Below are positions 621-63,500 of a stretch of 64,000 bases of DNA, piece by piece. Origin of the DNA: Chiloscyllium plagiosum (taxonomy: Eukaryota); assembly GCF_004010195.1 (NCBI RefSeq), contig NC_057749.1:14888088-14952087 (forward strand). The letters are read 5' to 3'. The notes under the pieces were generated by a model. It saw nothing but the letters and a program-made list of their open reading frames with translations. It was not told the origin of the DNA and ran no database searches. Every line of letters begins with the position of its first letter. Position 1 is the first letter of the stretch. A program made the position numbers and the translations under genes.

Positions 621-3074
621 AAAGCATCATTCTGCTGCTGAGGGGCAGGCGTGTTTAAATGGGTCCTTTTGAGTCCTAGCCCTTTGTCCTTCCTTGAATT
701 ATCCTGGGAGATGGGCTGGAATGGAAGGTAAAAATATAAACGTTTGGTACAGTTATTGCTCAATGTTTGAAAAATCAAGGCCAGAACTTCTCCTGCTATC
801 GTGAATGCGGCCAGCATTCCATTGTCTGTATCTCCCAAGGGACCAGCGACTGATCAGTTGGCATTTTCCCAGGAGATGGCACATCGTGATTACAGCTGTG
901 TGTGTAAGAGCTGACAATTTGCCTCTGTGTTGCTCTGAGAGTTCCAGGATGCCTATGTTCAACCTTTTGTAGCGAGCAAGCTAAATTGGAAGTGACAGCA
1001 GCTCGGTGCAAATTGAAAGCGTATTTACTGAGCGCAGGCAAGAAGCACATTTCATGGAGAGAGAGAGAGAGAGAGGGACGCAGCTCATGCACTCTGCTGT
1101 CACTTGCCCACCCTGTCCCAGCGCACTTAACATCAAGAGTAATCCCTCTGCTATGTCATTATTCAAAGGCTAATTACATAAGGCTCAGTCCATCACTATT
1201 GTGTTTCCATTTTGTTCTTTAGAGAGAGATTAATATTCCCCGGGGTGTGACAGAGATTGGTAACAGTACAGAAATTACACTTCATTCTGGATGTTCTCAG
1301 GGGTGGGCTGCTTTAAGCAGAGTGAAAGACATATCATTCCTTCACTGGTGGAACATTCCGGAATGATACAGAGCCGAGGGATCAATCCATAGTCTGTACT
1401 GATTCTTCATGTACCGGGTTGAGGCAGTACATGGTGACGAGCTGTTTGACTGTGAGAGGCATCGCAAAGAGTTCACTTTCTCTTTCTAAGGGACGCAAAT
1501 TGGCTTGAGTGTTTTGTGCGAAGATTTCGGGTTGGTGGGTGGGGGTGAGGTCCTCCAGGGTCTCCCCCATTTCTCTCCAGTCTACCACTGACACGACCCC
1601 AAATGCAGAAGCTAACCCCGTGCAAAGCATTTGATAGGCAGAATTTGGGAACAGCTGGAGGCTGTTTGGCTGGTGATGAAGGTTCTTGTGGTGTAGCGGT
1701 AGTGTCCCTGCCTCAGAGCCTGGAGATCTAGCTTCAAGTCCCACCTGATCCAGAGGTGTGCTGTGACACACCTGGGCAGGTTGTTTCAGAGATATATCTC
1801 CCTATCCTCAATCAGCCTTATCTCTGTAACCCTTGGCTCCCCCCAGCAGACATCTATCAATCTCAGTTTGGAAATTTGCAGTTGGTCCTCAGCAGCGTTC
1901 CCGTTGTGAGGAGAACGTGGGAATTTCCACTGTGCATTCGGTGTCGGGGAAGCGTTCAGAATTCCTGCGTGATGCTTGCCCACGGTCAAGCAGCTAGTCA
2001 CCCCACATTGCCTCGCCCTGGCACATGATGGGGGCAGTATCAGAGGCTGATTGGAATGTGGAATGTTGCCTGAGACGGGGGTTTGAGAAGAGGAGGAGGA
2101 GGGGTGGGTTGGGGGGGTGTCGGAAATGATTGGCATTGCAGCCAGCTGTGTGGATGCTGCTTCAATATCCATGGCATAACTGGAGTGAGAATTTCAGGGT
2201 CAGCAGGGTCCTGTTTCCTGTATGTATTAGGCCTGTGTCTAGGCACAGCTCAGACCAAGTCAACAACACCTCTCTGTTTATACCAGTGGAAACATTTCCT
2301 ATAGCTTCCAATGCAGAAAGAGGTCATTCAGCCCACTGTTTCCCATGCCAGCCACACACTCTGACTCCTCCCCTGTCGCACTGCAACCTCGTCACTTAAA
2401 TATTCATCCAGTTCGTCTGTTGGAAGTGTCTGTTGAAACTGCTTCAACTGTGCATTCAGGCAGAATACAGGCACAGAGGTCAGGAGCAGGCGGAGGCTGA
2501 AACCACTCCACAGAGGCCGGTATCCTGTCACCGAGTCACCCTGTGCGGGCAGGAAGGGGGATTGAGATGGTGGCTGTAGCTGAACAGGCAAGAGTTGGAA
2601 TGTTGAGGGCTTTCTCAATCTGTCTGAGGTCAATGCCTGAGCCCACATGGTGTTTTCTCGAGAAGCGAGGCAGAGAGAAGCCGTTTGGACAGCTCACTGA
2701 TTGCAACTCCACTGGCAGGGACACTGCAAGCATGTGGGATCCCAGGTGTGTTCTTTAACGATTAACACAGGATTGCAATTTGCTTGTGGAAAGAACTTTT
2801 CTGATCCAAAGTTGCTGCCTGGCATTGACTGGCAAGCTGGCTCAGCTTGAACTGAAGACCGGTCCGTTTGGTCTCATTTCCTATATCTCTCCACGTCTTG
2901 TCTAACCTCCTTTGGAGAGTTTGGGATTGTTCAGTTGTCAGCCATCTCTGCTGTAAGTGAGATGATTACTATTGAACAGTCTGTGTACTAATGCATGAGG
3001 CATTAGGGACAATCCATCAGCAATTCACTTCTGTCAGACCACATTTCCACATCATCTTCGCATGAAAAGACCGA

Positions 3075-3384
3075 GAGAGACTTGCATTCATATAGCATCC
3101 CTCGTGACCTCTGAATCCCCCACAGTTCCCCCACGTGTAGTCTCTGCATTAATGTAGAAACCTCAGCATCCATTGTATGCACAATAAGCCCCCACAAACA
3201 GGAAATTAATTGCAGCTGTTCATCTGAATTTGTGGTATTGGTTCCGGAATAATAATTCGTCATGACAGCAGGATGAGCCACTGTGTCATTTTCCTACACA
3301 GCACCATGGGATATTTTGCAACCACATGGGAGGCAGTCAGCATGTCATTCTCACCCTCGATAGTGCAGGAGTCTCTCAGCACTG
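3075..3384 (-). mobile_element. DeuSINE (SacSINE1-like) remnant
   Basis: Degenerate match to the recalled Deu-domain reverse strand (cccacaaacag...ccatgggat...ccctcgatagtgcaggagtctctcagcactg). Confidence 0.55.
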
Positions 3385-4237
3385 AGGGAATATCACACTG
3401 TTGGAGGGTCAATACTGTGGGAGTGAGAGTACTGAGGCAGCGCCGCACTGTCGGAGGGTCTGTACAGAGGGAGCACCAGCTGATGCAGGGTCAGTGCTGA
3501 GGGACTGCTGCACTGTCGGAGGGTCAGTGCTGAGGGAGTGGCGCACTGTCAGAGGGTCAGTGCTGACGGAGTGCTGCACTGTCGGAGGGTCAGTACTGAG
3601 GGAGTGCCGCACTGTCAGAGGGTCAGTACTGAGGGAGTGCCGCACTGTCGGAGGGTCAGTGCTGAGGGAGGGCTGCACAGTCGGAGGGTCAGTGCTGACG
3701 GAGTGCTGCACTGTCGGAGGGTCAGTATTGAAGGAGTGCCATACTGTCAGAGGGTCAGTACTGAGGGAGTGCTGCACTGTCAGAGGGTCAGTACTGAGGG
3801 AATGTGCACTGTCAGAGGGTCAATACTGAGGGAGTGCCATACTGTCAGAGGGTCAGTACTGAGGGAGTGCTGCACTGTCAGAGGGTCAGTACTGAGGGAG
3901 TGCCGCACTGTCAGAGGGTCAGTACTGAGGGAGTGCCGCACTGTCAGAGGGTCAGTACTGAGGGAGTGCCGCACTGTCAGAGGGTCAGTACTGAGGGAGT
4001 GCTGCACTGTCGGAGGGTCAGTGCTGAGGGAGTGCTGCACTGTCAGAGGGTCAGTACTGTAGGAGTGCCGTACTGTCAGAGGGTCTGTGCTGAGGGAGTG
4101 CCGCACTGTCAGAGGGTCAGTGCTGAGGGGGTGCCGCACTGTCAGAGGGTCAGTGCTGAGGGAGTGCCGCACTGTCAGAGGGTCAGTACTGAGGGAGTGC
4201 CGCACTGTCAGAGGGTCAGTACTGAGGGAGTGCCACA
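3376..4237 (+). repeat. 33-bp minisatellite (cagtactgagggagtgccgcactgtcagagggt)n, ~26 copies
   Basis: Tandem units read directly. Confidence 0.95.
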
Positions 4238-4327
4238 CTCTTGAGAATGGTCATGAGAATCCAACTTGTGACAATGCCCTAATCTGGGGCATGGGATCAA
4301 AACAGCCTGTTACTATAAAGTAACCAG

Positions 4328-4502
4328 CTGACAGTGCGGTGCCCCCTCAGTACTGACCCTCCGACAGTGTGGCACTCCCTCAGTACTGACCTTCTGACAG
4401 TGCTTTGCTCCCTCAGTACTGACCCTCCGACTGTGCAGCCCTCCCTCAGCACTGACCCTCCGACTGTGCAGCCCTCCCTCAGCACTGACCCTCCGACAGT
4501 GC
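4328..4502 (-). repeat. 33-bp minisatellite, ~5 copies, inverted relative to 3376-4237
   Basis: ctccctcagtactgaccctccgacagtg units. Confidence 0.95.
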
Positions 4503-5264
4503 TAACTCCCCCAACAAGGCTCTTGGTGCTGCAAGATTAACGTGATATAGAAGCACAGAATGTTTCGGAGTCTCAAAATGTGCCAGTGGGCTCGCAGGTT
4601 CCTGAAGTGATGTTGTGCAGTGAAGCAGCTGGTGAGTGCATGGTAAGATCCCAGTAACAGAAAGGGCAGTGGGAGCATAGCTACTCTTAATAACTTGGGT
4701 GAAGGACAGTGGCTTTGTGGGCGCCTCTGTATTTAAAGAAGTGAATTATTAACAGGCTAATCATCTATTAATGTTCAAAAATGGTAGACAGCCTTCACCA
4801 TCTAAACAGAAGTTGGTTATAAATATTAAAACAAATGGAGAATGTGATACTCAATTCCATTCATGCATTATTGACCAGATAACTGCTCTATTCAACTTCA
4901 TGCTGAAAGTGTCCCTGAATGTTGTGCCCACACACTTTATCAGAGAGAACTGCAAGATGAACACAGCCATATACGCTCAGAATTCCTGACCATCCATTCC
5001 ATCCTATCCCTTGGAGCCAGCCAATCACCTCTATGGTTGGGTGCATTCACTATACATTTAGTTTTCTCATTCCCTGCTCCCTTTCATGTTCTCCTGTCAT
5101 CGTGAGGCAGCAGCTTAAACTAATGAGAAGCAAGTCAGGAGGTGCTGGAGGGAGGTGGCTGCAGTGGGAGAGGAGACTGGTCCAGCTGCACCTTTGTGGT
5201 CCCAAAGCACAATGACCAGAATCGCAGCGATCTCACCATCCGCGGTAGCAATAATAAGGTAGGC

Positions 5265-5981
5265 TTAAGGTGAGAGGGGAGAGATTTAAAAAGCACCTGA
5301 GGGGTAACCTTTTCACACAGAAGGTGATGCGTGTATGAAATGAGCTGCCAGAGGAAGTGGTGGAGGTTGGTACATTGCAACATTTAAAAGGAAGGGTTTG
5401 GAGGGCTATGGGCCAAATGCTGGCAAATGGACTTGGTTAATTTAGGGTATCTGTTCGGCAAGGACAAGGTGGACAAAAAGATCTGTTTCCGTGCTGTGCA
5501 TCTCTATGACTCTATAACAGAACACCTGTCCCTCACTATGGAGTTGCAGGTAGATAGGATAGTGAAAAAGGTGTTTGGTATGCTTTCCTTTATTGGTCAG
5601 AGTATTGAGTACCGGAGTTGGGAGGCCATGTTGCGGATGTACAGGACATTGGTTAGGCCACTGTTGGAATATTGCGTGCAATTCTGGTCTCCTTCCTATC
5701 GGAAAGATGTTGTGAAAGTGGAAAAGGTTCAGAAAAGATTTACAAGGATGTTGCCAGGGTTGGAGGATTTGAGCTATAGGTGAGCTGCCAGAGGATGTGG
5801 TGGAGACTGGTACAATTGCAACATTTAAGAGGCAATTGGATGGGTATATGAATAGGAAGGGTTTGGAGGGATATGGGCCGGGTGCTGGCAGGTGGGACTA
5901 GATTGGGTTGGGATATCTGGTCAACATGGACAGGTTAGACTGAAGGGTCTGTTTCCATGCTGTACATCTCTATGACTCTAT
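5265..5981 (+). mobile_element. Two tandem CR1/HER1-type LINE 3' fragments
   Basis: RT C-terminal peptide YRTLVRPLLEYCVQFWSP..KVEKVQKRFTRMLPGL; two tails ending tctctatgactctat (5515 and 5981). Confidence 0.9.
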
Positions 5982-6694
5982 AACAGGACACCTGTCCCTC
6001 ACTATCTCTGCAATCCCTATGGCCCTCCATGATCTCACCACTTCCCAAATTCTGGCCTTTCTGAGTGTCTGCCATTTGAATGGTTTCACCGTGCCTTCCA
6101 CTCCCTGAACCTGAAGTTCAGGTTTCTCAGCAAGCTCGAACATCCAGCCTGTACCTGCAGCAAGTTGATTCCTTCCTTGGATCATGCTCACTCCATGGAG
6201 TTAAAGAGCTGGTGCCCTGTATTCTGCTTAATCCTCCTTAAACTTCTCTGCCTCTCTCTCCCCTTATTAACACTTACGTCACCAGCTCCAATGTCTCCTT
6301 ATGTGATTTGATGTTGAGGTTTGTTTAACAATGCTGCTGTGAAGTGCTTTGGAATGTTCATGGTGCTATATAAATGCAAGTTGCTGTTGTTGTTAGGGCC
6401 ATTCAGCCCCTCAAGCCTGCTCTAGCAGTCCGACAACAATAGCTAAACCCTACTTGAGCCCCATTTCCCAGCCACATCTCGAAATCCTTTTGAAAGTGAG
6501 ATACATGGCAGTGTAACACTGTAGGTCAGTTCACTGTCATTTGGTTGTTGTCTTGGTGCTGACATCCTACCAATCAACTGGAAGCTGATTACCTGGGCTT
6601 GCACCTCATTTGTTACGTGTGGAATCTTCCTGTGCACAGCAGTGACCATCCTTCAGAGCTCCGGTAAAGGTGCAAAATGTTCTGTTTTGATCAT

Positions 6695-11300: not shown

Positions 11301-11788
11301 CTGGATGTTAAACACTGCCTGAGTGGCAGCCACTCCTTCGATAGTCTCGATCCTCAGCTCCAGTCTCTAAGGAATGTAATAAATAGGAGCAGGATTTGGC
11401 CATTTGGCCCATCAAGTCAGCTCTACCATCCAATACAATCCTGCCTTCTCTTGGTCTCAGCTGCACATCTCTCTCAATTTCCTGAGAGATCAGAAATTGG
11501 TCTGACCTATTGTTATCATTATGCCCAAATGCATGGATCTCAGTCCCAAACCCAAAGGCTCTTTACCCTGACATGGTAACCCCCCACCCCCACCCCACCC
11601 ATGCTGGAGATCCACCAGGCAGGGGTCCTCAAACTCTGCCTCTCCCTCCTCTTCTAAGATGCTCTAAGAACACAACTCTTGAACCAAGATTGTTCATCAT
11701 TCAAAGTACTCCTTCGCTGGCTTTCTCCTCCTGTTTGGGAATTTGCACTTCGTTCACAGTGTGAGAGAAATGCAAATTCTCATTGTAT

Positions 11789-14330: not shown

Positions 14331-15626
14331 TTGTACTTTCCCTTTAATTCCATAAGCTTCAGCTCTGCTGAGAGGCCTCTTATGTGACAGGTGCCTTCTG
14401 CAAAACCATTTCTGCCAAATCAACCAACCATCCCTTGCTGCCTGGTCAAAAAACCTCAGTCAAGTTGATCAAACGCGGTTCGGATTTGTTTTACTTAATC
14501 TCAGCCCAATCCTTCATTAAAAGTGAAACTTGCCCAAGTGACGGTGAATTTTGTTCGGAATTCTTTCCCCACTGCTGATGTTACACTGACTGACCTGTTG
14601 TTGCTGCATTTATCCATNNNNNNNNNNNNNNNNNNNNNNNNNNNNNNNNNNNNNNNNNNNNNNNNNNNNNNNNNNNNNNNNNNNNNNNNNNNNNNNNNNN
14701 NNNNNNNNNNNNNNNNNNNNNNNNNNNNNNNNNNNNNNNNNNNNNNNNNNNNNNNNNNNNNNNNNNNNNNNNNNNNNNNNNNNNNNNNNNNNNNNNNNNN
14801 NNNNNNNNNNNNNNNNNNNNNNNNNNNNNNNNNNNNNNNNNNNNNNNNNNNNNNNNNNNNNNNNNNNNNNNNNNNNNNNNNNNNNNNNNNNNNNNNNNNN
14901 NNNNNNNNNNNNNNNNNNNNNNNNNNNNNNNNNNNNNNNNNNNNNNNNNNNNNNNNNNNNNNNNNNNNNNNNNNNNNNNNNNNNNNNNNNNNNNNNNNNN
15001 NNNNNNNNNNNNNNNNNNNNNNNNNNNNNNNNNNNNNNNNNNNNNNNNNNNNNNNNNNNNNNNNNNNNNNNNNNNNNNNNNNNNNNNNNNNNNNNNNNNN
15101 NNNNNNNNNNNNNNNNNTGTGAGAGAGAGAGTGTGTGAGAGTGAGTGTGTGTGTGAGAGAGTGGGTGTGTGTGCGTGTGTGAGAGTGAGTGAGTGTGTGT
15201 GGCTAACTCCTTCAGATGGCAGATCTTTTAAAAAAGGAGTGTGAAACAGTGAGAGAATTCTGAAACAGAAGCAGAAATTGCTGGTGAAACTCAGCAGGTC
15301 TGGCAGCATTTGTGGGAGGAAAGCAGAGTTAAATTTTTGAGTCCAGTGACTATTTATCAGAGCCAATAGGTTCTGCTCCTGAGCTGCACTGTAACCATAC
15401 TGAAGCTGTCCCCATGAGAGCCTTCTGTCAGTAACCTCACCGTACTGCCCTGACAGTGATGCCTTCTGTAATATTAATTGGAAGCTCCCAGTTGGCAGAG
15501 ACAGTCCATTTTACTAACAGCTGATTGGAAGAGGAGGAGGCTATTGTGCTCCTTGAGCTCGTTCTGCCTCATAATGTCTGGTTTGTGACCTGGCTGTGTA
15601 TTCCCATCTCAAACCCCTGTCCCATT

Positions 15627-22224: not shown

Positions 22225-22490
22225 CTGTCTGATGCTCCCATTGCAGTACCAGGGAAGTGCCACACTGTCACTGGTGCCACATTTTAAGATAAAACGCCAC
22301 AATGTAGGCTGTTTCAGGTGGTTGTCAATAATTCCACAGCTAGGTGCTCAAAGGTGAGCAGAGGGGTTTTCCTCAATGACCCAGTTACTCAACGCTGTTA
22401 AAAACACATCAGCTGGCCAGTATTTCATTGCTATCTGTGGGAGTTTGCTGTGTAGGTTTGGCTATTGTGTTTTCTATCATTGCGTGTTGA
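22225..22490 (+). mobile_element. DeuSINE remnant with a single unexpanded copy of the 33-bp unit
   Basis: gcagtaccagggaagtgccacactgtcactggtgcc...tttcattgctatctgtgggagtttgctgtg. Another unexpanded copy lies at ~27690-27900 (gagtactgagggagcactgcactgttggtggagctgtctttt). Confidence 0.6.
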
Positions 22491-23082: not shown

Positions 23083-26000
23083 CCCACCCTCCAACACTGC
23101 TCCACTCACCCTCCTCCACCCTCCAATACTGCTCCACTCACCCTCCTCCACCCTCCAATACTGCTCCACTCACCCTCCTCCACCCTCCGCTCCACTCACC
23201 CTCCTCCACTCTCTGCTCCACTCACCCTCCCCCTCCACTCCACTCACCCTCCTCCACCCTCCACTCCACTCACCCTCCTCCACCCTCCACTCCACTCACC
23301 CTCCTCCACCCTCCACTCCACTCACCCTCCTCCACCCTCCACTCCACTCACCCTCCTCCACCCTCCACTCCACTCACCCTCCTCCACCCTCCACTCCACT
23401 CACCCTCCTCCACCCTCCACTCCACTCACCCTCCTCCACCCTCCACTCCACTCACCCTCCTCCACCCTCCACTCCACTCACCCTCCTCCACCCTCCACTC
23501 CACTCACCCTCCTCCACCCTCCACTCCACTCACCCTCCTCCACCCTCCACTCCACTCACCCTCCTCCACCCTCCACTCCACTCACCCTCCTCCACCCTCC
23601 ACTCCACTCACCCTCCTCCACCCTCCACTCCACTCACCCTCCTCCACCCTCCACTCCACTCACCCTCCTCCACCCTCCACTCCACTCACCCTCCTCCACC
23701 CTCCACTCCACTCACCCTCCTCCACCCTCCACTCCACTCACCCTCCTCCACCCTCCACTCCACTCACCCTCCTCCACCCTCCACTCCACTCACCCTCCTC
23801 CACCCTCCACTCCACTCACCCTCCTCCACCCTCCACTCCACTCACCCTCCTCCACCCTCCACTCCACTCACCCTCCTCCACCCTCCACTCCACTCACCCT
23901 CCTCCACCCTCCACTCCACTCACCCTCCTCCACCCTCCACTCCACTCACCCTCCTCCACCCTCCACTCCACTCACCCTCCTCCACCCTCCACTCCACTCA
24001 CCCTCCTCCACCCTCCACTCCACTCACCCTCCTCCACCCTCCACTCCACTCACCCTCCTCCACCCTCCACTCCACTCACCCTCCTCCACCCTCCACTCCA
24101 CTCACCCTCCTCCACCCTCCACTCCACTCACCCTCCTCCACCCTCCACTCCACTCACCCTCCTCCACCCTCCACTCCACTCACCCTCCTCCACCCTCCAC
24201 TCCACTCACCCTCCTCCACCCTCCACTCCACTCACCCTCCTCCACCCTCCACTCCACTCACCCTCCTCCACCCTCCACTCCACTCACCCTCCTCCACCCT
24301 CCACTCCACTCACCCTCCTCCACCCTCCACTCCACTCACCCTCCTCCACCCTCCACTCCACTCACCCTCCTCCACCCTCCACTCCACTCACCCTCCTCCA
24401 CCCTCCACTCCACTCACCCTCCTCCACCCTCCACTCCACTCACCCTCCTCCACCCTCCACTCCACTCACCCTCCTCCACCCTCCACTCCACTCACCCTCC
24501 TCCACCCTCCACTCCACTCACCCTCCTCCACCCTCCACTCCACTCACCCTCCTCCACCCTCCACTCCACTCACCCTCCTCCACCCTCCACTCCACTCACC
24601 CTCCTCCACCCTCCACTCCACTCACCCTCCTCCACCCTCCACTCCACTCACCCTCCTCCACCCTCCACTCCACTCACCCTCCTCCACCCTCCACTCCACT
24701 CACCCTCCTCCACCCTCCACTCCACTCACCCTCCTCCACCCTCCACTCCACTCACCCTCCTCCACCCTCCACTCCACTCACCCTCCTCCACCCTCCACTC
24801 CACTCACCCTCCTCCACCCTCCACTCCACTCACCCTCCTCCACCCTCCACTCCACTCACCCTCCTCCACCCTCCACTCCACTCACCCTCCTCCACCCTCC
24901 ACTCCACTCACCCTCCTCCACCCTCCACTCCACTCACCCTCCTCCACCCTCCACTCCACTCACCCTCCTCCACCCTCCACTCCACTCACCCTCCTCCACC
25001 CTCCACTCCACTCACCCTCCTCCACCCTCCACTCCACTCACCCTCCTCCACCCTCCACTCCACTCACCCTCCTCCACCCTCCACTCCACTCACCCTCCTC
25101 CACCCTCCACTCCACTCACCCTCCTCCACCCTCCACTCCACTCACCCTCCTCCACCCTCCACTCCACTCACCCTCCTCCACCCTCCACTCCACTCACCCT
25201 CCTCCACCCTCCACTCCACTCACCCTCCTCCACCCTCCACTCCACTCACCCTCCTCCACCCTCCACTCCACTCACCCTCCTCCACCCTCCACTCCACTCA
25301 CCCTCCTCCACCCTCCACTCCACTCACCCTCCTCCACCCTCCACTCCACTCACCCTCCTCCACCCTCCACTCCACTCACCCTCCTCCACCCTCCACTCCA
25401 CTCACCCTCCTCCACCCTCCACTCCACTCACCCTCCTCCACCCTCCACTCCACTCACCCTCCTCCACCCTCCACTCCACTCACCCTCCTCCACCCTCCAC
25501 TCCACTCACCCTCCTCCACCCTCCACTCCACTCACCCTCCTCCACCCTCCACTCCACTCACCCTCCTCCACCCTCCACTCCACTCACCCTCCTCCACCCT
25601 CCACTCCACTCACCCTCCTCCACCCTCCACTCCACTCACCCTCCTCCACCCTCCACTCCACTCACCCTCCTCCACCCTCCACTCCACTCACCCTCCTCCA
25701 CCCTCCACTCCACTCACCCTCCTCCACCCTCCACTCCACTCACCCTCCTCCACCCTCCACTCCACTCACCCTCCTCCACCCTCCACTCCACTCACCCTCC
25801 TCCACCCTCCACTCCACTCACCCTCCTCCACCCTCCACTCCACTCACCCTCCTCCACCCTCCACTCCACTCACCCTCCTCCACCCTCCACTCCACTCACC
25901 CTCCTCCACCCTCCACTCCACTCACCCTCCTCCACCCTCCACTCCACTCACCCTCCTCCACCCTCCACTCCACTCACCCTCCTCCACCCTCCACTCCACT

Positions 26001-27600: not shown

Positions 27601-27989
27601 ATTGTTCCTCTTCTCTAGATCTTCCGGCCAACAAGCTCTGCTCTTGGTTTGCCATTTCACCAGAAAGACGACTGTGACAGTTCAGGGGTTAGCACAAACT
27701 CTCTAGACCTTGGGCTGGAGTGCACTGAAACGAAAGCTGTTGTCTCAGTGGAGTACTGAGGGAGCACTGCACTGTTGGTGGAGCTGTCTTTTGAGTGAGA
27801 TAAGGCCACATCTGCCTGTTGGGTGAATGTAAATGATCAGAGAGGTGTAAGGGTCTTATTGTCAGTGTTCTGTCCAATTTCTGCCCTTCAGTTGCAAAGG
27901 GACAGATAGGTCTGGTTAGCATTACAACCACAATTTTTAAAAAGATTGGTGGAATACAGATGGGTTCCAAGATGGCAGGTCTGTCACCC

Positions 27990-48450: not shown

Positions 48451-48539
48451 AAACTCTCCAGGTGGTGCAGAATGTGCACATTGGAACACCCAGGGGCTGT
48501 TAAATGATGTTCAAAGGCAGAGGTGTGGTTGGAAACTAT

Positions 48540-48970
48540 TATAGAGTCATAGAGATGTACAGCACAGAAACAGACCCTTCGGTCCAACCTGTCCATGCCG
48601 ACCAGATATCCCAACCCAATCTAGTCCCACCTGCCAGTACCCGGCCCATATCCCTCCAAACCCTTCCTATTCATATACCCATCCAAATGCCTCTTAAATG
48701 TTGCAATTGTACCAGCTTCCACTACATCCTCTGGCAGCTCATTCCATACATGTACCACCCTCTGCGTGAAAAAGTTGCCCCTTAGGTGTCTTTTATATCT
48801 TTCCCCTCTCACCCTAAACCTATGCCCTCTAGTTCTAGACTCCCCCACCCCAGGGAAAAGACTTTGCCTACTTATCCTATCCATGCCCCTCATAATTTTG
48901 TAAACCTCTATAAGGTCACCCCTCAGCCTCCGACGCTCCAGGGGAAACAGCCCCAGCCTGTTCAGCCTCT
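48540..48970 (-). mobile_element. Young CR1/HER1-type LINE 3' fragment
   Basis: RGHRFRVRGERYKRHLRGNFFTQRVVHVWNELPEDVVEAGT; close to 26996-27420. Confidence 0.92.
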
Positions 48971-50237
48971 TTGTCTAACAAAACAAAAAAAACCTGGTTG
49001 ATTCCAGCATTCAGCTGTACAGATTAAGAATGCATGCAGGAGGATTTAAGGGGAAGTAATCAGAAATCAGGTAATAAAAGATCCTTGTACACACAAGGTA
49101 ATCTGACCGAATCTCTGAAATGGGGACCTGCTGTATTGTTGTTTGTTGTACTGTACTGACATTCAGGCTATGAGAGTCAACAATGTTAAAATAGCAGGTC
49201 CTGCTGGAAGAACACTCATGTTCCTCATTGCACTGTGTCCACAGGCCCGTGGCTATTATATTAATAATGTTCAAGCTCTATTGAGCATTTGGTCTCCGAT
49301 ATCAAACAGCTGGAACTGTTGCCGGTGGCTGCTAGCTGCTATTAACTTGCCTCCTCAGAAAACAATGCAGCCCTTCAGCTAGACCAGCAGAGTCCCCAGC
49401 TGCCTGACATCAGCAATCATTTCACAGCTCCCCAGTCACAAGGGTATCCATTATCCAGCCGTGTCGCCTACAGCAGACTGCAGTCTGACGAATCTTTCCA
49501 CTGCATACCTGGGTATCTCTCCCTGAAGGTTGTACACACATACACACACTCTCTCAAGCATATGCATAACCTATATCATGCACACTTATACACAGGCTTA
49601 ACCATGCACACATATGCTTTCACAAACACGCACAAGGCACACGTGAATGCTCACACTAGCCAACACGTACACAGGTGTGAGTCCACATAGACAAGCACTG
49701 TCGCTCCCACACCTCTCAAATACAAACCCACACTCAATGCACAAGCATGTGTGCCTCTATTTCACACATGCAAACACACACAGGTGAATGCACAATTGCA
49801 GAGACATAGCTGCAGAAACGCATCCAGAGACATGCACAGTGGATGCACACAGCCTCTGTTTTCTCTGAACATTTATTTCCCAATGGTGTTGTTTTCAAAG
49901 ACTGTGTATGGGCATGGAGTTTATTGAACAGGGGCTCCTCTGATCCCTGATCCATACAGGTTTTGGCCAGTGTTATCCTGAACTGTACACACTAGGGTTT
50001 TAATCCATTACCAGCGCTGCGCGATTGGCAGTCAGTTTCTGACAGTGTTCAGTGTTTCTGCACCAGATCTCCATTTGTCACTTCTCAGGTGTGTAACATT
50101 CTTTTACTCTCAATGTGTGTAAATTGGTCACTCTATTTCCACACCAACTAAGACGAGGGCCAGAGGGATTGAGTGAGGGAAATGGGGCTAAATCAGGCAG
50201 CACTCTCAAAGAACTGGCATTGGCATGGAGGGCTGAA

Positions 50238-50548
50238 TGAATCATAGAATCCCGACAGTGTGGAAGCAGGCCATTTGGCCCATCAAGTCCGCACTGGCCC
50301 TCCAAAGGGTGTCCCACCCAGACCTACCCCCACAACCCTCTAGTTCCCATGACTGTCCCACCCAGCTTGCACATCCCTGGACAATTTCCCATGTCTAATC
50401 CATCTAACCCACACACCTTTGGGGGCTGTAGGAGGAAACCCACGCAGACACAGGGAGAATGGACACAGACAGTTGCCTGAAGGTAGAATCGAACCCAGGT
50501 CGCTGGCGCTGCAAGGCAGCATTGCTATCCTCTGAGCCACCATGCTCC
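50238..50548 (-). mobile_element. HE1/V-SINE copy
   Basis: ggaggaaacccacgcagacacagggagaa core and tRNA-like head. Confidence 0.8.
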
Positions 50549-51130
50549 TCCTGTGATGTCAGACCTCTGGCTGCCCTCTGATATAAATCATTCACTGTAA
50601 ATCACTGTGGGCCATCCTGAGGAGGTGAGAGAGAGAGACTCCATAAAAAGTACCTGCTCCAAATGCGCATTGGAATTACTGAGGGACTGACTGGAGCTGG
50701 GGCCTGGCTGTTTAAAAGCACAGTGTCTCAGACCGAGAACCTCCACCAGATTTGCAAATGTAGCCATGAACTGAGTGTAAAGAAGCAGATGGCTGTAATG
50801 GATGGCAGATTTTAAATTTAAAATGAGTATTCCTTTCCTGTTCTCCAACACACACGCGTGCCCGAGGACTGAACTTTTAGTTAACGTACAAATCCCAACT
50901 CTGTCAGGGAGCTTATGCTTCTTTACATGATATCCACTCTCCATCTGTTACTTTCCCGTCTCATCTACGCAGGTCACGTTTGACGTGATGACAGATTAAT
51001 GTCTCAATAATAGAGTTGTGATTGGATGGGGCTCGAAAGACAGGAGAAATAATGTGCATTAATGCAGTGTCTTATCCTGAGGTCAGGGCATCTCCTCAAG
51101 CTTCACATCCAATGAGTTCTTTTCGAAGAG

Positions 51131-51287
51131 AGATGCAATACGTGAGATCACACATTCGCACATAGACAGCTCTCAAGGCAGAAACGCAATGCAAACTCAT
51201 CTGGTCCTGACTTTAGTTGCAGGAAAAGGATTGTTGGTTACTTAGACCAACATTCTAAACCAGCACTGAGGGAGTGCCGCATTGTCA
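51131..51287 (+). repeat. Left arm of a 157-bp inverted repeat
   Basis: Reverse complement of 55929-56085; 12 mismatches and no indels by manual alignment. Confidence 0.95.
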
Positions 51288-54200
51288 GAGGGTCACTAAT
51301 GAGGGAGTGCTGCACTGTCGGAGGGTCAGTAATGAGGGAGTGCCGCATTGTCAGAGGGTCACTAATGAGGGCATGTCGCACTGTCGGAGGGTCATTAATG
51401 AGGGAGTGCCGCATTGTCAGAGGGTCACTAATGAGGGCGTGTCGCACTGTCGGAGGGTGAGTAATGAGGGAGTGCCACACTGTCAGAGGGTCACTAATGA
51501 GGGAGTGTCGCACTGTCGGAGGGTCATTAATGAGGGAGTGCTGCATTGTCGGAGGGTCAGTAATGAGGGAGTGTCGCAATATCGGAGGGTCATTAAAGAG
51601 GGAGTGCCGCATTGTCAGAGGGTCACGAATGAGGGCGTGTCGCACTGTCGGAGGGTCAGTAATGAGGGAGTGCCGCATTGTCAGAGGGTCACTAATGAGG
51701 GCGTGTCGCACTGTCGGAGGGTCAGTAATGAGGGAGTGCCGCACTGTACAGGGTCAGTAATGAGGGAGTGTCGCACTGTTGGAGGGTCATTAATGAGGGA
51801 GTGCTGCATTGTCAGAGGGTCAGTAATGAGGGAGTGTCGCAATATCGGAGGGTCATTAATGAGGGAGTGCCGCATTGTCAGAGGTTCAGTAATGAGGGAG
51901 TGTCGCAATATCGGAGGGTCAGTAATGAGGGAGTGCCGCATTGTCAGAGGGTCACTAATGAGGGCGTGTCGCACTGTCGGAGGGTCAATAATGAGGGAGT
52001 GCCGCATTGTCGGACGGTCAGTAATGACGGAGTGTCGCACTATCGGAGGGTCAATAATGAGGGAGTGCCGCATTGTCGGAGGGTCATTAATGAGGGAGTG
52101 TCGCATTGTCGGTGGGTCAGTAATGAGGGAGTGTCGCACTGTCGGAGGGTCAATAATGAGGGAGTGTCGCACTGTCGGCGGGTCAGTAATGAGGGAGTGT
52201 CGCATTGTCGGAGGGTCAGTAATGAGGGAGTGTCGCACTGTCGGAGGGTCATTAATGAGGGAGTGCCGCATTGTCGGACGGTCAGTAATGAGGGAGTGTC
52301 GCACTATCAGAGGTTCAGTAATGAGGGAGTGTCGCATTGTCATAGGGTCAGTAATGAGGGAGTGTCGCACTGTCAGAGGGTCAGTGCTGAGGAAGTGTTG
52401 CACTGTCGGAGGGTCAGTGCTGAGGGAGTGTCGCACTGTCGGAGGGTCATTAATGAGGGAGTGCCGCATTGTCGGAGGGTCATTAATGAGGGAGTGTCGC
52501 ACAGTCGGAGGGTCAGTAATGAGGGAGTGTCGCACTATCAGAGGTTCAGTAATGAGGGAGTGTCGCACTGTCGGAGGGTCATTAATGAGGGAGTGCCGCA
52601 CTGTCAGAGGGTCAGTAATGAGGGAATGTCGCACTGTCGGAGGGTCATTAATAAGGGAGTGTCGCACTGTCGGAGGCTCAATAATGAGGCAGTGCCGCAT
52701 TGTCGTAATGTCAGTAATGAGGGAGTGTCGCATTGTCGGAGGGTCATTAATGAGGGAGTGTCGCACTGTCGGAGGGTCAGTAATGAGGGAGTGCCGCATT
52801 GTCGGAGGGTCAGTAATGAGGGAGTGTCGCACTGTCGGAGGGTCAATAATGAGGGAGTGCCGCATTGTCGGAGGGTCAGTAATGAGGGAGTGTCGCACTG
52901 TCGGAGGGTCAGTAATGAGGGAATGTCACATTGTCGGAGTGTCAGTAATGAGGGAGTGTCGCACTGTCATAGGGTCATTAATGAGGGAGTGTCGCACTGT
53001 CGGAGGGTCAGTAATGAGGGAATGTCACATTGTCGGAGTGTCAGTAATGAGGGAGTGTCGCATTGTCATAGGGTCATTAATGAAGGATTATCGCACTGTC
53101 GGTGGATCATTAATGAGAGAGTGTCCCACTGTCGGAGGCTCAATAATGAGGGAGTGTCGCACTGTCAGAGGGTCAGTAATGAGGGAGTGCCGCACTGTCG
53201 GAGGGTCAGTAATGAGGGAGTGCTGCACTGTCGGAGGGTCATTAATGAGGGAGTGTCGCACTGTCGGAGGGTCAGTAATGAGGGAGTGTCACACTATCAG
53301 AGGTTCAGTAATGAGGGAGTGTCGCACTGTCGGAGGGTCATTAATGAGGGAGTGCCGCACTGTCAAAGGGTCAGTAATGAGGGAGTGTCGTACTGTCGGA
53401 GGGTCATTAATGAGGGAGTGTCGCACTGTCGGAGGGTCAGTAATGAGGGAGTGCCGCATTGTCGGAATGTCAGTAATGAGGGAGTGTCGCATTGTCGGAG
53501 GCTCAATAATGAGGAAGTGCCGCATTGTCGGAATGTCAGTAATGAGGGAGTGTCGCACTGTCGGAGGGTCAGTAATGAGGGAGTGCCGCATTGTCGGAAT
53601 GTCAGTAATGAGGGAGTGTCGCATTGTCATAGGGTCAGTAATGAGGGAGCGTCACACTGTCGGAGGGTCAGTGCTGAGGAAGTGTTGCACTGTCGGAGGG
53701 TCATGATGAGGGAGTGTCGCATTGTCGGAGGGTCAGGAATGAGGGAGTGTCGCACTGTCGGAGTGTCAGTAATGAGGGAGTGTCGCACTGTCGGAGGGTC
53801 AGTAATGAGGGAGTATCGCAATGTCGGAGGGACAGTAATGAGGGAGTGTCGCACTGTCGGAGGGTCATTAATGAGGGAGTGCCGCATTGTCGGACGGTCA
53901 GTAATGAGTGAGTGTCGCACTGTCGGAGGGTCAATAATGAGGGAGTGCCGCATTGTCGGAGGGTCAGTAATGAGGGAGTGTCGCACTGTCAGAGGGTCAG
54001 TGCTGAGGAAGTGTTGCACTGTTGGAGGGTCAGTGCTGAGGGAGTGTCGCACTGTCAGAGGGTCATTAATGAGGGAGTGCCGCACTGTCAGAGGGTCAGT
54101 ACTGAGGGAGTGCCGCACTGTCGGAGGGTCAGTGCTGAGGGAGTGTCGCACTGTCGGAGGGTCATTAATGAGGGAGTGCCGCATTGTCGGACGGTCAGTA

Positions 54201-55925
54201 ATGAGGGAGTGCCGCATTGTCGGAGGGTCATTAATGAGGGAGTATCGCACTGTCGGCGGGTCAGTAATGAGGGAGTGTCGCACTATCAGAGGTTCAGTAA
54301 TGAGGGAGTGTCGCACTGTCGGAGGGTCATTAATGAGGGAGTGTCGCACTGTCGGAGGGTCAGTAATGAGGGAGTGCCGCACTGTCAGAAGGTCAATAAT
54401 GAGGGAGTGTCGCACTGTCGGAGGGTCAGTAATGAGGGAGTGTCGCACTGTCGGAGGCTCGATAATGAGGGAGTGCCGCATTGTCGGAATGTCAGTAATG
54501 AGGGAGTGTCGCATTGTCGGAGGGTCATTAATGAGGGAGTGTCGCATTGTCGGAGGGTCAATAATGAGGGAGTGTCGCACTGTCGGAGGGTCAGTAATGA
54601 GGGAGTGTCGCACTGTCGGAGGGTCATTAATGAGGGAGTGTCGCACTATCAGAGGTTCAGTAAGGAGGGAGTGTCGCACTGTCGGAGGGTCATTAATGAG
54701 GGAGTGTCGCACTGTCAAAGGGTCAGTAATGAGGGAGTGTCGCACTGTCGGAGGGTCATTAATGAGGGAGTGTCGCACTGTCGGAGGCTCAATAATGAGG
54801 GAGTGCCGCATTGTCGGAGTGTCAGTAATGAGGGAGTGTCGCACTGTCGGAGGGTCAGTAATGAGGGAGTGCCGCACTGTCAGAGGCTCAATAATGAGGG
54901 AGTGCCGCATTGTCGGAGGGTCAGTAATGAGGGAGAGTCGCACTGTCGGAGTGTCAGTAATGAGGGAGTGTCGCACTGTCGGAGGGTCAGTATGAGGGAG
55001 TGTCGCACTGTCGGAGGGTCAGTAATGAGGGAGTGTTGCACTGTCAGAGGGTCAGTAATGAGGGAGTGTCGCACTGTCGGAGGGTCAATAATGAGGGAGT
55101 GCCGCATTGTCGGACCATCAGTAATGAGGGAGTATCGCACTGTCGGAGGGTCAGTAATGCGGAGTGTCGCACTGTCGGAGGGTCATTAATGAGGGAGTGT
55201 CGCATTGTCGGCGGGTCAGTAATGAGGGAGTGTCGCACTGTCGGAGGGTCAGTAATGAGGGAATGTCACATTGTCGGAGTGTCAGTAATGATGGAGTATC
55301 GCACTGTCATAGGGTCATTCATGAGGGAGTGTCACACTGTCGGAAGGTCAGTAATGAGGGAGTGCCGCACGTCGGAGGGTCAGTGCTGATGGAGTGTCGC
55401 ACTGTCGGAGGGTCAGTAATGAGGGAGTGTCACACTGTCGGAGGGTCATAAATGAAGGAGTGTCGCAGTCTCGGAGGGTCAGTAATGAGGGAGTGGTGCA
55501 CTGTCATAGGGTCATTCATGAGGGAGTGTCACACTGTCGGAAGGTCAGTACTGAGGGAGTGTCGCACTGTCAGAGTGTCAGTAATGGTGGAGTGTCGCAC
55601 TGTCGTAGGGTCATTAATGAGGGAGTGTCACACTGTCGGAAGGTCAGTAATGAGGGAGTGCCGCACGTCGGAGGGTCAGTGCTGATGGAGTGCCGCATTG
55701 TCGGAGGGTCATTAGTGAGGGAGTGTCGCACTGTCGGAGTGTCAGTAATGAGGGAGTGGTGCACTGTCGGAGGGTCAGTAATGAGGGAGTGGTGCACTGT
55801 CGGAGTGTCAGTAATGAGGGAGTGTCGCACTGTCGGAGTGTCAGTAATGAGGGAGTGGTGCACTGTCTGAGGGTCAGGAATGAGGGAGTGCCGCACTGTC
55901 GGATGGTCAGGAATGAGGGAGTGTT
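51261..55925 (+). repeat. 33-bp minisatellite variant (gtcagtaatgagggagtgtcgcactgtcggagg)n, ~140 diverged copies
   Basis: Tandem units with a diagnostic AATGAG in place of ACTGAG. Confidence 0.97.
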
Positions 55926-55928
55926 GTA

Positions 55929-56085
55929 TGACAGTGCGGCACTCCCTCAGTACTGGTTTAGAATGTCGGGCTAATTAACCAACAATCCTTCTCTTGCAAA
56001 TAAAGTCAGGTCCAGATGAGTTTGCATTGCGTTTCTGCCTTGAGAGCTGTCTATGAGCGAATGTGTGATCTCACATACTGCATCT
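55929..56085 (-). repeat. Right arm of the 157-bp inverted repeat
   Basis: Reverse complement of 51131-51287. Confidence 0.95.
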
Positions 56086-58206
56086 GACTACACTGTTGGT
56101 GGGTTTGTAGAGGCTGAATGGCCTTCTCCTGCTCCTATGATCTTAGTATTTATTTCCTCCGGCAATCTGTGGGGATAAGGTCATGCACTAACAGATGAAC
56201 ATACAGCAGCCTCCTGAGAAGCTGAGTTGTCATCTCAGCTGGAAGACACTGAGGGTTACCTGGTTCTCTCTCCACAGATGGTGCCCACCTCTGGAGCTCT
56301 TCCGAGTTTGTTCAGATCTTTGGCATCTGCAGTATTTTGCGTTTGGAACTATTGGCCCAGATGTGCCAGTAGCTGCCAATCTGCACCAAATTAACCTGAA
56401 ATCTTGCTTCGTTTCCTCATTCCACAGAGGTTACCTGGCTGCTTCAGTAACTTTTTAAGTCACTGATAACTGTCACTGATCTTGTTTCAGAAAGTCCAGC
56501 GACTGATGGTTATAGAGGGATCTGATCAGCCTAAAAGCATCACACAGACACACACACAGACACAGACACACACAGACACACCCACACAGACACACCTACA
56601 CCCACATACAGACACACACACACACACACACCAACACACACACAGACNNNNNNNNNNNNNNNNNNNNNNNNNNNNNNNNNNNNNNNNNNNNNNNNNNNNN
56701 NNNNNNNNNNNNNNNNNNNNNNNNNNNNNNNNNNNNNNNNNNNNNNNNNNNNNNNNNNNNNNNNNNNNNNNNNNNNNNNNNNNNNNNNNNNNNNNNNNNN
56801 NNNNNNNNNNNNNNNNNNNNNNNNNNNNNNNNNNNNNNNNNNNNNNNNNNNNNNNNNNNNNNNNNNNNNNNNNNNNNNNNNNNNNNNNNNNNNNNNNNNN
56901 NNNNNNNNNNNNNNNNNNNNNNNNNNNNNNNNNNNNNNNNNNNNNNNNNNNNNNNNNNNNNNNNNNNNNNNNNNNNNNNNNNNNNNNNNNNNNNNNNNNN
57001 NNNNNNNNNNNNNNNNNNNNNNNNNNNNNNNNNNNNNNNNNNNNNNNNNNNNNNNNNNNNNNNNNNNNNNNNNNNNNNNNNNNNNNNNNNNNNNNNNNNN
57101 NNNNNNNNNNNNNNNNNNNNNNNNNNNNNNNNNNNNNNNNNNNNNNNNNNNNNNNNNNNNNNNNNNNNNNNNNNNNNNNNNNNNNNNNNNNNNNNNNNNN
57201 NNNNNNNNNNNNNNNNNNNNNNNNNCACACTCTCTCACACACACACATACACACACACTCTCATACACACACACACATACGCACACACTCACACATCTCA
57301 GATATACACACTTGCACTCACATACACAAACACACTCATACACACACTCACACGCACTCTCAGACACGCACATATACAGTCTCGCACATACACACATTCA
57401 CATACACACACTCACTCACACACACTCACACATACACACTTTCAGACACACACATACACAGTCACACACTCACACAGACTCTCAGAAACATACACTCACA
57501 CGCCCTCTCAGAGACACACACACCCTCTCAGACACATACACAGACAGAAACACACACACCCCAGATGGAGCGTGTGCATTCACAGACAGTCGAGAGGCCA
57601 TTTGGCGCATTGTGACTGCATTTGTAAAAGGAGGCAGCCTGTCGAATCGACCCTCCTAGGCCCTGCTCTTGTTGCCCTGTAGGTTAGAGCTGGCCAATTA
57701 CATATTCAAATACTTTTTAAATGGGAGTAAGGTTTCTGCCTCTCCCTCGCTTTCAAACAGTAACCACAGCATTTTGCATGCTCTTAAAAATGAAAACCGA
57801 CCGGGATATGATTAAACATGCTCGCAGCGAAGTCTCCCCTGTCAAGCTGATGAATCAAACAGAAGCCATTGCAATTCCACAATGGATATGATCTAACCTC
57901 GAGGGTCAGCAGTTAGCACCCACAGTGTAACACCTAATGTCTCTTTAACAAGACAGCTCTGAGAATCTCACCCTCCGCAGAAAATAATTGTGGGGGACAG
58001 GAGCGAGAGGGTGTCTCGAAGTAGGAAGGAAAGCTGAGGAATTAAAGGAAGGTTGATTCAGAATAAGTAAAGAGATTTGTGTTGGGGTCATTTTAGCTTA
58101 GTTTGGGAGTAAAACCAACAAACCCATGGTTTGGATATGTCGGCCCATTGTGAGATTGAAAAAAAATTATCAGATAATTGCACTGGAGTGTACATTATAC
58201 AGAAAA

Positions 58207-60576: not shown

Positions 60577-63500
60577 CTATTATAGGAAAAGCCAAACAGA
60601 GAACAGCCAGGGAATTCCTAGAGGCATGGCACTCATCCACAGATTCAATCAATAAGCACATCAACCTGGACCCAATATACCAGCCACTGCAGCGGACAGC
60701 TTGAACTGACAACCGGAAGCAGCAGAGACAAACCACTACAAATGCCAGAGGAAAGATCACAGAAGCGCTTCACAGGAGGCTCCCAAGCACTGAGGATGTC
60801 ACCGAGACAGGGGACAAAACGTCTGCAACACAAATTCGCAGCTCGGCGAACAGAACCACAACAACGAGCACCCGAGCTACAAATCTTCTCACAAACTTTG
60901 AACTGAAGTAGAGTCCCAGACTGACTTTACGAACACACCATCGACTGTGGCAAGGCTCACACAATATAATGGCTACAAAGTCAATTTGAATAGAATCACT
61001 GACAACAATCCATCCCTCCCCAGTGAGCTCAATGCATTCTCTGCTCGTTTTGAACAACAAGTCAATGGAATGATGTCACTTTACCCCGACAGCCTCAGGT
61101 GCCCCTGTACCCACAGTCATTGCTGCCGGGGTCAGATCAGCCTACTCGAGGGTCAACCTACAGAAGGGGACTGGCCCAAATGGAGTCCTGGGGTGTGCAC
61201 TCAGATCCTGCACAGACCAGGTGGTGGGAGTGTTTGCAGACATCTTTACCCTCTCCTTACTCCAATGTGAGGTTCCCAACCGCTTCAAGAAGAACCTCAC
61301 CATCATCCTGGTGCCAAAGGAAGACCAGGCAGCTTGCCTTAATGCCTACCGCCCAGTAGCTTTGACACACAGAGGCTAGTCATGGCCCACCCCAACTCCA
61401 GCCTCCCAGACTGCCTTGATCCACTACAATCCCCCTACAATAGGTCCACAGAAGGCAACATCTCCCTGGCTCTACACTCATCACTGGACATCTGGAAAAC
61501 AAGGACACCTATTGGCTCTAGCTCTGCCTTCAACATCATAATTCCAACAAAGCTCATCTCCAAACTCCAAGAGCTAGGACTCTGCTTCCCCCTCTACAAC
61601 TGGATCCTCGACTTCCTGACCAACAGACTACAGTCAGTAAGGATAAGCAATAATCCTCCACAATAATCCTCACTACCGGTGCCCCGCAAGGATGTGCACT
61701 AGGCGTCCTACTATACCTCTTATACAAACATGACCATGTGGCCAAACTCAGCTGTAATTTCATTCTCAATATTGGTGATGACATCACCTTATTGGGTTGG
61801 AACTTAAGTAACAAGATGGAGCACCGGAATGAGATAGGGAGCTTAGCAGTGTGGTGTAAGGACAACCTCTCCCTCAATGTCAGCAAAATAAAGGAGTTGG
61901 TCATTGACTTCAGGGAGCGGAGTGGAGGACATACCCCTGTCTGTATCAATGGGGCTGAACTAGAGGTGGTCAAGAGCTTCAAGTTCCAAGGAGAAAATAT
62001 CACCCACAATCTATCTTGGTCTATCCACATTGATGCTACAGTCAAGAAAGTACACCAACGCCTCTCCTTCCTCAGATGGAAGTCAGCATGTCCACAAAGA
62101 CTCTTGCTAAGTTTTATAGATGCACTAAAGAAAGCATTTTACCGGGATGCATCACAGCTTGGTATGGCAACTGCTCTGCCCAGAACCATAACAAACTACC
62201 AAGAGTCATGAGCACAGCCCAGCCCATCACGTGAACTAGCTTTCCATCCATTGACTCTGTCTGCACTTCCCTCTGCCTTGGAAAAGTAACCAACCTAATC
62301 AAGGACGCCCCCCCACCCCGGTTATACTCTCTTCCACCCTCCTCCAGAAGGTACAAAAGTCTGAAAACATGTACCAACATATCCCAATAGATTCAAGAAC
62401 AGCTTCTTCCCCGCTGTTATCAGACTTATGAACAGACCGCTCATATATTAGAGTTGATCCTTCTCTGCACCTTCTCTGTAGCTGTAACACTATATTCTGC
62501 ACTCTGTTCTATTACTTATGTAATTACTATGTAATTTGCCCCGATAGCACACAAAACAAAACTTTTCACTGCATCTTGGTATATGTGACAATAATAAATC
62601 AAATCAAATCATAAGTGGAAATAGATTATTGCTATTTGTGAAATGCAGTGATATAAGTGCAGCAAGCCCTACATTGACATATTCGCCATTGCAGTTTGAT
62701 AATCATCTCCCTCTAAGGGTTCATTCAAAACTCTGGTTCAGGAAAATAATCGAGTCAAGTACTTGCTTAGATGGTGGGTAAATGTAGTTGCAGGTATTTC
62801 ATCGTCCCTGGTTAGTAAGATGGTGGCTCTATGTTTGACAAGCCCACAGGTGCTGCTGCTGGGTTTAGAGGCAAAGAAATCCACAGAACACAATCTGTCT
62901 TGGGTAAGGCACATCGCAGATCTGGCAGTGTCCCTGATGTCCACACAGTGTTCCTCTTAGACCAGATGAGCCTCAGGTTTCTTTGTTTAACCTTTTATTC
63001 TTACACGCACATATCAAGAAGATAGTGTACAGCTCAAATACTTTTGCAAGAACAAAGGTTTATATTATTTTTATAGATAACTATTGCAGGTAACTCACCC
63101 TCCCATTCCCACCCTATCATCATTCACATTCCAAGTTAGTAAGTTGAAATGTACCACAAACACCATTTCAGCAAGGCTGTGGGTCTTTGGCTCTTTAATA
63201 ATTATCCAGGGAAGTGTGCCCGCTCACTCTAAGCTGTGACCCTTTCACATTAAGATTGATTTCCTGGATCAGTTCCGTTTGCCATGCAGACTAATTCCAA
63301 GATCCAGAAACACATCATCTTCTTCACTGGGTAGCTTAGGTATTCAGCACTTAATAAAACAAAACTTAGTAGCTTGTGCACTGTTTGTACAGGGAGACAG
63401 ATAGACACATATACACACATACACAGTCTCTCATACAACTCGCTCATTCACACACACACGCGAATAAAATCACACACAGTCACAGACATTCTGTCTCACA

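Follow-up and report, generated by a model that had tools for sequence, protein, structure and literature searches.

A probable local template switch beside a 33-bp minisatellite in the shark Chiloscyllium plagiosum

Introduction

Short inverted copies of adjacent DNA, and tandem arrays born inside dispersed repeats, are known from several systems. Among the gold-standard template-switch events of Walker et al. (2021, PMC7954356), 65% gain length, and the copied stretch has a median of 12 nt and a maximum of 128. The fold-back insertions obtained in yeast by Yu et al. (2024, PMC11724301) measure from 10 to more than 150 bp and close on 0–5 bp of microhomology. In the small inverted triplications named DUP/IN/DUP (Lei et al. 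2026, PMC13334657), the inverted fragment has a median of 160 bp and the junction a median of 6 bp, with breakpoints near tandem repeats. Satellites derived from short interspersed nuclear elements (SINEs) have been described in squamates, where the number of units varies from locus to locus (Vassetzky et al. 2023, PMC10702118), and a family of Deu-domain SINEs, SacSINE1, has been reported in sharks (PMC5499810). Tandem repeats are treated in bulk only in the accessible text of an elasmobranch genome preprint (10.1101/2022.10.17.512540). Here we analyze a 33-bp minisatellite bordered by two inverted copies of the same flank, the arms. It lies in a stretch of 64,000 nucleotides of Chiloscyllium plagiosum (assembly GCF_004010195.1, contig NC_057749.1, positions 14,888,088 to 14,952,087 of the forward strand), called the window below and numbered from its first letter.

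We consider it probable that the right arm was made by a one-off local template switch (fold-back), which copied the left edge of the array into its last unit. A literature search, with most subscription papers and the repeat databases outside its reach, found neither this combination of structures nor the 33-bp shark unit.

Results

Two inverted arms and the array between them

Contigs from sequencing runs of three organisms were compared with the assembly: organism A is the same species as the assembly, and organisms B and C are other species. The first-pass annotation of the window had reported 157-bp inverted arms with 12 mismatches and no indels, and this alignment was reproduced. Positions 51131-51287 pair with the reverse complement of 55929-56085 over 157 nt, gap-free and with 12 mismatches (92% alike), and the flank score is reached by 0/1000 shuffles. 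Ten of the 12 mismatches fall within the 129 letters outside the array, a part which, by BLAST, has no match in the window other than the two arms. The homology extends 9 nt farther outward on the right, to 56094, and in a gapped alignment 5 nt retained by the right arm are missing from the left one near 51130. An organism C contig matches the right arm up to 56094 and then continues with 176 unlike letters; it is read as the left arm of that organism. The nine letters 56086-56094 also match two dispersed SINE-like copies of the window (8/9). On the strength of this contig, these in-window copies and the 5-nt gap of the left arm, the end of the inverted copy was placed at 56094. An earlier reading of the outer junction, with 5 unexplained letters, was rejected, as organism C and the in-window copies assign those letters to the arm.

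The features of the locus are, from left to right:

51082-51126, minus strand: outward continuation of the presumed source copy, a decayed SINE-like tail that was not duplicated (42/5000 vs 1524/5000 shuffles)
51127-51259, no strand: left arm, unique part, presumed source (alignment; second sample of the same species; organism C contig)
51260-51292, plus strand: first array unit, with the family base C kept at unit position 7
51260-55929, plus strand: 33-bp minisatellite, 141 units and a last partial one ending at unit position 20-23
55914-55949, no strand: inner junction, where a plus unit meets a minus unit; stem of 16 pairs closed by a 4-nt loop (55930-55933)
55930-55956, minus strand: single inverted unit, positions 27 to 1, apparently insulated from the later turnover of the array
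55957-56094, no strand: right arm, unique part, presumed inverted copy (alignment; organism B contigs reach the right flank)
56088-56094, plus strand: outer junction, microhomology shared by the arm end and unit positions 18/21-24
56095-56104, plus strand: putative end (positions 25-34) of the interrupted last unit (8/10 without the shared 4 nt)
56109-56145, plus strand: high-copy repeat end beside the junction (five in-window relatives; contig depth)

Outward of the arms the two sides differ. The left side resembles the tail of the SINE-like repeat, with a summed score reached by 42/5000 shuffles, against 1524/5000 for the right outer flank, in a start-anchored alignment to five in-window copies of which one anchor is poorly placed (5/9). 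Because the left side, and not the right one, continues as the repeat tail, the left arm would be the source copy. The annotation had the left arm running into decayed SINE-like sequence; this stands for the outward part, while the SINE nature of the arm itself is weakly supported (see below). A SINE-like copy of a different kind, presumably of the V-SINE type, is found at 50400-50545, about 600 nt to the left of the arm.

The array comprises 141 units of 33 bp and one partial unit, all on the plus strand, and a single minus-strand unit, that of the right arm, occurs within 51100-56200. Ninety-five of the 141 units are distinct and there are no exact internal repeats of at least 90 nt; with units so varied, the array is unlike a collapsed or looped assembly. 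At its left end (51260-51950), two unit types alternate in a local dimer pattern. No match to the unit motif was found in viral contigs or in metagenome contigs (0 in either).

Comparison of the units points to the order of events. Compared over positions 2-27, the inverted unit is identical to the consensus of the 3.4-kb array in the window (0 differences) and shows 2 differences from the consensus of the array it borders. An A at unit position 7 is carried by 129/140 inner units and is absent from both arm units; in the four other array blocks scored, this position is C in 60/63 units and T in 3. As the arm units are without this A, the present array content seems to have spread later than the copying event, and among plus-strand units only. 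The best explanation is that the inverted unit could not join this turnover and so kept the family sequence. In addition to the interrupted unit, one full unit or more must have been present when the copy was made. The earlier statement that only the left unit expanded, to ~140 copies, is better put as a turnover, after the event, of plus-strand units only.

Inner and outer junctions of the copy

At the inner junction, the last plus unit folds onto the inverted one in a stem of 12 Watson-Crick and 4 G-T pairs, and the predicted DNA fold of 55900-55960 has an energy of −14.3 kcal/mol. All four G-T pairs sit in the last six letters of the stem, so that the exit point is uncertain, from unit position 20 to 23. 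A reading in which the plus unit ends at 20 and the arm reaches 30 via a minor unit variant was set aside in favor of this hairpin. The fold is centered at unit positions 24-27, while the palindromic centers of the unit itself are at 5-6 and 19. The annotation had proposed, as the favored one of two options, a template-switch duplication at the quasi-palindromic unit followed by one-sided growth. The inverted duplication and the subsequent growth are retained here; as the fold center is off the palindromic centers of the unit, a switch at the quasi-palindrome is unsupported for this event.

Beyond the right arm, 56091-56104 matches unit positions 21-34 at 12/14, in register with the last plus unit. 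The background for this motif at 12/14 is 3/107,280 non-array positions; any rotation of it is found at 3/53,640 plus-strand positions, all at two solitary units described below. Since the last unit appears to resume past the right arm, the arms do not enclose the array, contrary to what had been proposed. The arm end and the unit share 4 nt at this outer junction (56091-56094). A unit variant frequent in the 11.8-kb array raises this to as many as 7 nt, and 56088-56104 is identical to that array at 16/17 letters (BLAST). The adjoining repeat end, which we take to be the 3′ tail of a long interspersed nuclear element (LINE), starts farther right: its contigs depart before 56109 and 56112, and none of its five in-window copies reaches 12/14 to the unit motif.

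These features can be accommodated in the following order of events, for which the return guided by microhomology is, like the order itself, deduced from the end product. An old SINE-like remnant would have contained the 33-bp unit already in tandem, with at least one full unit ahead of the final one. Near position 23 of that final unit, a 3′ end, either nascent or broken, would have turned to the opposite strand and copied backward one unit and ~138 nt of unique flank, ~165 nt in all. It would then have returned to the original template at the 4–7 nt common to flank and unit, resuming at unit position 25. The product would be an inverted repeat with units at its center, where slippage or unequal exchange later multiplied the plus-strand units and a variant specific to the locus became fixed. 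Replication-fork switching and fold-back break repair are not distinguished by this structure. The arms have no part in transposition under this explanation, and no function is implied.

Copy number and presence in other species

The left flank (48500-51262) was searched in sequencing runs and 18/23 listed runs, from organisms A, B, and C, were positive, with shares of 0.58-0.90 in organism A, 0.23-0.41 in organism B, and 0.27-0.33 in organism C. Four runs were then aligned to 636 bases (55900-56535) at 85% likeness: one of organism A (another sample), two of organism B (from two studies), and one of organism C. In these four runs from three species, the unique arm has a summed contig depth of 0-53 and is found in 1-5 contigs per run among the matches listed. 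The depth amounts to 12,833-121,861 for the unit and 900-6,457 for the adjoining repeat end (56120-56141), values of the kind that a young dispersed family would show. Contig depth is not copy number, these figures cover the contigs listed (1,252 further pieces lie outside them), and the 85% threshold bears on families up to 15% diverged. The suspicion that the arm is a common repeat, raised in the annotation as a case that would undo its reading, is thus not borne out at this likeness.

The right arm is also found outside the assembled individual. In organism B, contigs covering 56032-56108 overlap others that begin at 56082 and extend 170-440 bases into the right flank (56082-56519 and 56082-56251), in runs from two studies. 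Since the arm and flank contigs overlap, the outer junction is present in a second species. At 56023-56031, the clipping of organism B contigs points to a possible indel or a cluster of changes. In the organism A run (depth ~2), one arm contig was detected, which has the left-arm base at seven of the 10 left/right sites and the right-arm base at three, with 700 unlike letters beyond; its left-arm bases and these unlike letters identify it as the left arm. Coverage holes, namely the same-species run over the right flank and organism C at 56095-56181, are not evidence of absence.

The left-arm bases at 51141, 51225, and 51249 are absent from this second same-species sample and from organism B. 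Because organism B also has the right-arm base at these sites, they are more simply taken as private to the assembled haplotype, or as errors.

The ten differences between the unique parts of the arms allow the event to be placed in time. Three are those just mentioned, absent from the second organism A sample and from B; one is absent from the organism C left arm and from all B contigs, and one from the B right-arm contigs. The remaining five were scored in a single B contig, which carries the left-arm letter at 3 of them and the right-arm letter at 2. At least 7/10 differences thus arose after organisms A and B split, which makes the event little older than that split. The flanks of A and B differ by 24/418 letters. 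Judged from these substitutions, the copy would have been made shortly before the split.

Origin of the 33-bp unit

Two solitary copies of the unit are embedded in dispersed SINE-like copies of the window:

22244-22273, plus strand: solitary unit (23/30 to the family consensus); the body around it matches the 27.7-kb copy (2/2000 shuffles)
27751-27780, plus strand: second solitary unit (23/30); the body around it matches the flank of the 9.7-kb array (21/2000 shuffles)

The flanks of these solitary units match those of the 3.4-, 9.7-, and 11.8-kb arrays. Among the body pairs, the score is reached by at most 27/2000 shuffles in 4/6, and 2/6 are not significant. Among the head pairs, that of the 22.2-kb copy with the 11.8-kb array stands out (0/1000 shuffles), most of the other 20 being not significant. 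In a leave-one-out test, the six tail copies recognize each other, with 0/996 background windows doing so. By these sequence matches, the 33-bp unit can be traced to a dispersed SINE-like repeat. We tentatively take this repeat to be SacSINE1, a Deu-domain SINE.

The arm itself may weakly be assigned to a decayed piece of the same repeat. It was not detected with profiles built from three, six, or seven in-window SINE-like copies. In 48 pairwise tests only its comparison with the 22-kb copy stood out, a signal that is weak after multiple testing; with dinucleotide shuffles, the score is reached by 13/5000 for the left arm and 122/5000 for the right one. A star test ranks the arm 2/996, 8-12/996, or nowhere, depending on the scoring, and in the expected orientation only. 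Within the arm, 51200-51262 seems to join a minus-strand SINE-like tail to plus-strand head-side sequence and the unit. An older inversion near 51240 is a possible, weak interpretation, for which one head pair gives 3/1000 shuffles.

No Rfam family, hammerheads included, reached its gathering score in the window. Pfam searches of 38/99 stop-to-stop frames of at least 110 aa (array, simple-repeat, gap, and some overlapping frames being omitted) gave only a decayed reverse-transcriptase piece at 61654-62208, below the RVT_1 cut-off, with no transposase and no host gene context.

Other loci of the window

The annotation had invoked the region 3075-4502 as a parallel. At 3356-3385, a decayed minus unit that matches the array end at 22/30 gives way to the plus array at the palindrome of the unit (~3372-3387); the SINE-like body of this 3.4-kb locus is on the minus strand, and a 90-bp spacer (4240-4329) is followed by five minus units. 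The parallel therefore holds for the flip in unit orientation and stops there: the opposed arrays of 3075-4502 have no inverted unique flanks (scores reached by 351 and 488 of 1000 shuffles). A survey of inverted flanks at other arrays, suggested in the annotation, returned 1/10 testable flank pairs in the window, which is the studied locus alone; 2 more with N were skipped. The longest inverted repeat given by the repeat finder, 14618-15204 / 56564-57150, was discarded as artefactual, being produced by two N gaps and CA/GT runs.

Two more observations concern other arrays. A 47-bp imperfect palindrome (11736-11782) lies immediately left of the 11.8-kb array of the 33-bp unit. Minus-strand 12/14 matches to unit positions 21-34 are found at 23086, 26012, and 26149, at the edges of a 3.1-kb array of 26-bp units, which may derive from the same SINE-like repeat as the 33-bp unit.

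Weighing of the explanations

Several points weigh against a local template switch. At the inner junction, the letters also fit a unit that ends at position 20 and is followed by two letters of a minor unit variant. None of the contigs listed for the four runs at 85% likeness bridges this junction or confirms the array length. At the outer junction, the remainder of the interrupted unit is just 8/10 once the shared 4 nt are omitted, and its letters partly resemble the adjoining LINE-like repeat end. A single sequence defines the insertion point, as no pre-event allele was seen. Among the organism B contigs listed, none has 31 letters on each side of the outer junction, and those of the right arm all lose 9 letters to clipping left of 56032; in the same-species run, the unique right flank is uncovered. 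As for a SINE identity of the arm, the profile of seven copies gave no match and the star-test rank depends on scoring. Finally, a fold in the last unit that gives one inverted unit followed directly by unique flank would require a jump to unit 1 or a later loss of units.

The alternative that survives best, although we regard it as unlikely, is a homology-driven origin, in which units already opposed to each other recombined, or underwent long-tract conversion between a plus and a minus unit, so that the flank was copied and the inner junction predates the arm. Opposed blocks of the 33-bp unit do occur in the window (3376-4502), and the apparent strand switch between tail and unit within the arm would be a possible, weak trace of such an older inversion. 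Conversion could also yield the right-arm base found at 3/10 sites in the left arm of the second sample, but organism B shares that base at the three sites, for which private bases or errors are simpler. Moreover, the stop of the plus unit at 20-23 and its resumption at 21-25 beyond the arm are left unexplained by recombination between opposed units.

The first of the two options in the annotation, a MITE (miniature inverted-repeat transposable element) or Foldback-like DNA transposon with 157-bp terminal inverted repeats and the minisatellite as cargo, appears very improbable. It would account for long, gap-free inverted arms at both ends, and foldback elements with tandem repeats are known, such as Tetris (Dias et al. 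2014, PMC4079207). As the annotation had already remarked, however, there is no target-site duplication (TSD): no direct repeat of 5-12 nt, the lengths scored, was found at the boundary pairs tried (left 51115-51134, right 56082-56107), against the 8–10 bp described for Tetris (PMC4079207), although an old TSD could have decayed. The arm is not multi-copy in the contigs of the three species at 85% likeness, as seen above. Nor do the arms appear to be terminal, as the array seems to resume past the right one and the left one continues into an older repeat, and the tandem block between them is unmirrored (141 plus units vs one minus unit).

We give equally little credit to an assembly artefact, that is, a fold-back of a read or contig at the array edge. 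The window contains five N gaps, one of them 550 nt from the right arm, the same-species run shows the left arm only, and the inner junction is unbridged. That run, with its depth of ~2, also misses most of the unique flank, and in organism B the arm is linked to the right flank in runs from two studies. In addition, the arms differ by 12 substitutions and a 5-nt indel; the annotation had argued likewise from their divergence of ~8%. Least probable of all are two independent, opposite insertions of a common repeat, or an inverted pair left by the insertion of a Penelope-like retroelement: a SINE origin of the arm is probable, and the window has at least seven further copies of that family, but no other in-window copy matches it (BLAST, profile), the arms are 92% alike and have the same rearranged join to the unit, and neither a multi-copy family at 85% nor an Rfam family at gathering score was found.

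Discussion

Taken alone, the locus would be a neutral scar of little importance. Its interest is that of a clean, datable template switch in the germ line with both junctions still readable, in which the inverted unit serves as an internal control: the array turns over only among units of the same strand. It also indicates that inverted arms around an array are prone to be mis-called as the ends of a MITE or Foldback element, and a minisatellite family grown from inside a SINE-like repeat of a shark would widen the known range of SINE-derived satellites from squamates to sharks.

A broader idea is that the 33-bp unit acts genome-wide as a seed of fold-back inversions, fresh palindromes surviving where growth of the central array provides a spacer. 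We hold this to be doubtful. The unit is inverted against its SINE-like tail flank at 2/4 of its loci in the window (3.4 kb and 51 kb, the latter with weak flank evidence), and a third locus has the 47-bp palindrome at its edge. Longer spacers reduce the instability of inverted repeats, according to the accessible text of a review (PMC7999016), which makes it plausible that array growth helped the arms to last. If the idea is true, lone inverted units would be frozen, datable records of arrays before their expansion.

The comparison with described systems suggests a known mechanism in a setting for which no description was found. Among transposons, Tetris has long inverted ends beside tandem repeats, like the present locus, and differs from it in its TSDs, in its several copies, and in having the tandem repeats inside the inverted repeats; the studied locus has none of these (PMC4079207). 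The squamate satellites share with it arrays made from an internal piece of a SINE and SINE sequence at the array end or ends. The present case differs by its shark host and 33-bp unit, and neither 'shark' nor 'inverted' occurs in the main text of that report (PMC10702118). As in DUP/IN/DUP events, the inverted fragment is of similar size, microhomology is found at the junction, and the breakpoints lie near tandem repeats. The direct duplications that flank those events measure 148 bp at the median (PMC13334657), against at most 3–7 nt directly repeated here; with the arm present twice and direct repeats this short, the locus is a duplication and not a triplication. Yeast fold-back insertions likewise contain a local inverted copy of adjacent sequence and resemble the present one in length and junction microhomology; their folds are primed by a natural 10-bp inverted repeat after an induced break in yeast, whereas no such primer, one base pair at most, is visible at the fold of our locus and the event is fixed in a germ line (PMC11724301).

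In its layout, the locus corresponds to a four-point template switch (PMC7954356). Here, the copied segment of ~165 nt exceeds the published maximum of 128, a 4.7-kb array now parts the arms, and the locus has no ancestral allele to align against. Both share forward copying, the use of a nearby template in reverse orientation, and the return to the original strand, which in the present array has moderate support (exit at unit position 20-23, re-entry at 21-25), and both leave behind an inverted repeat and lengthen the sequence overall.

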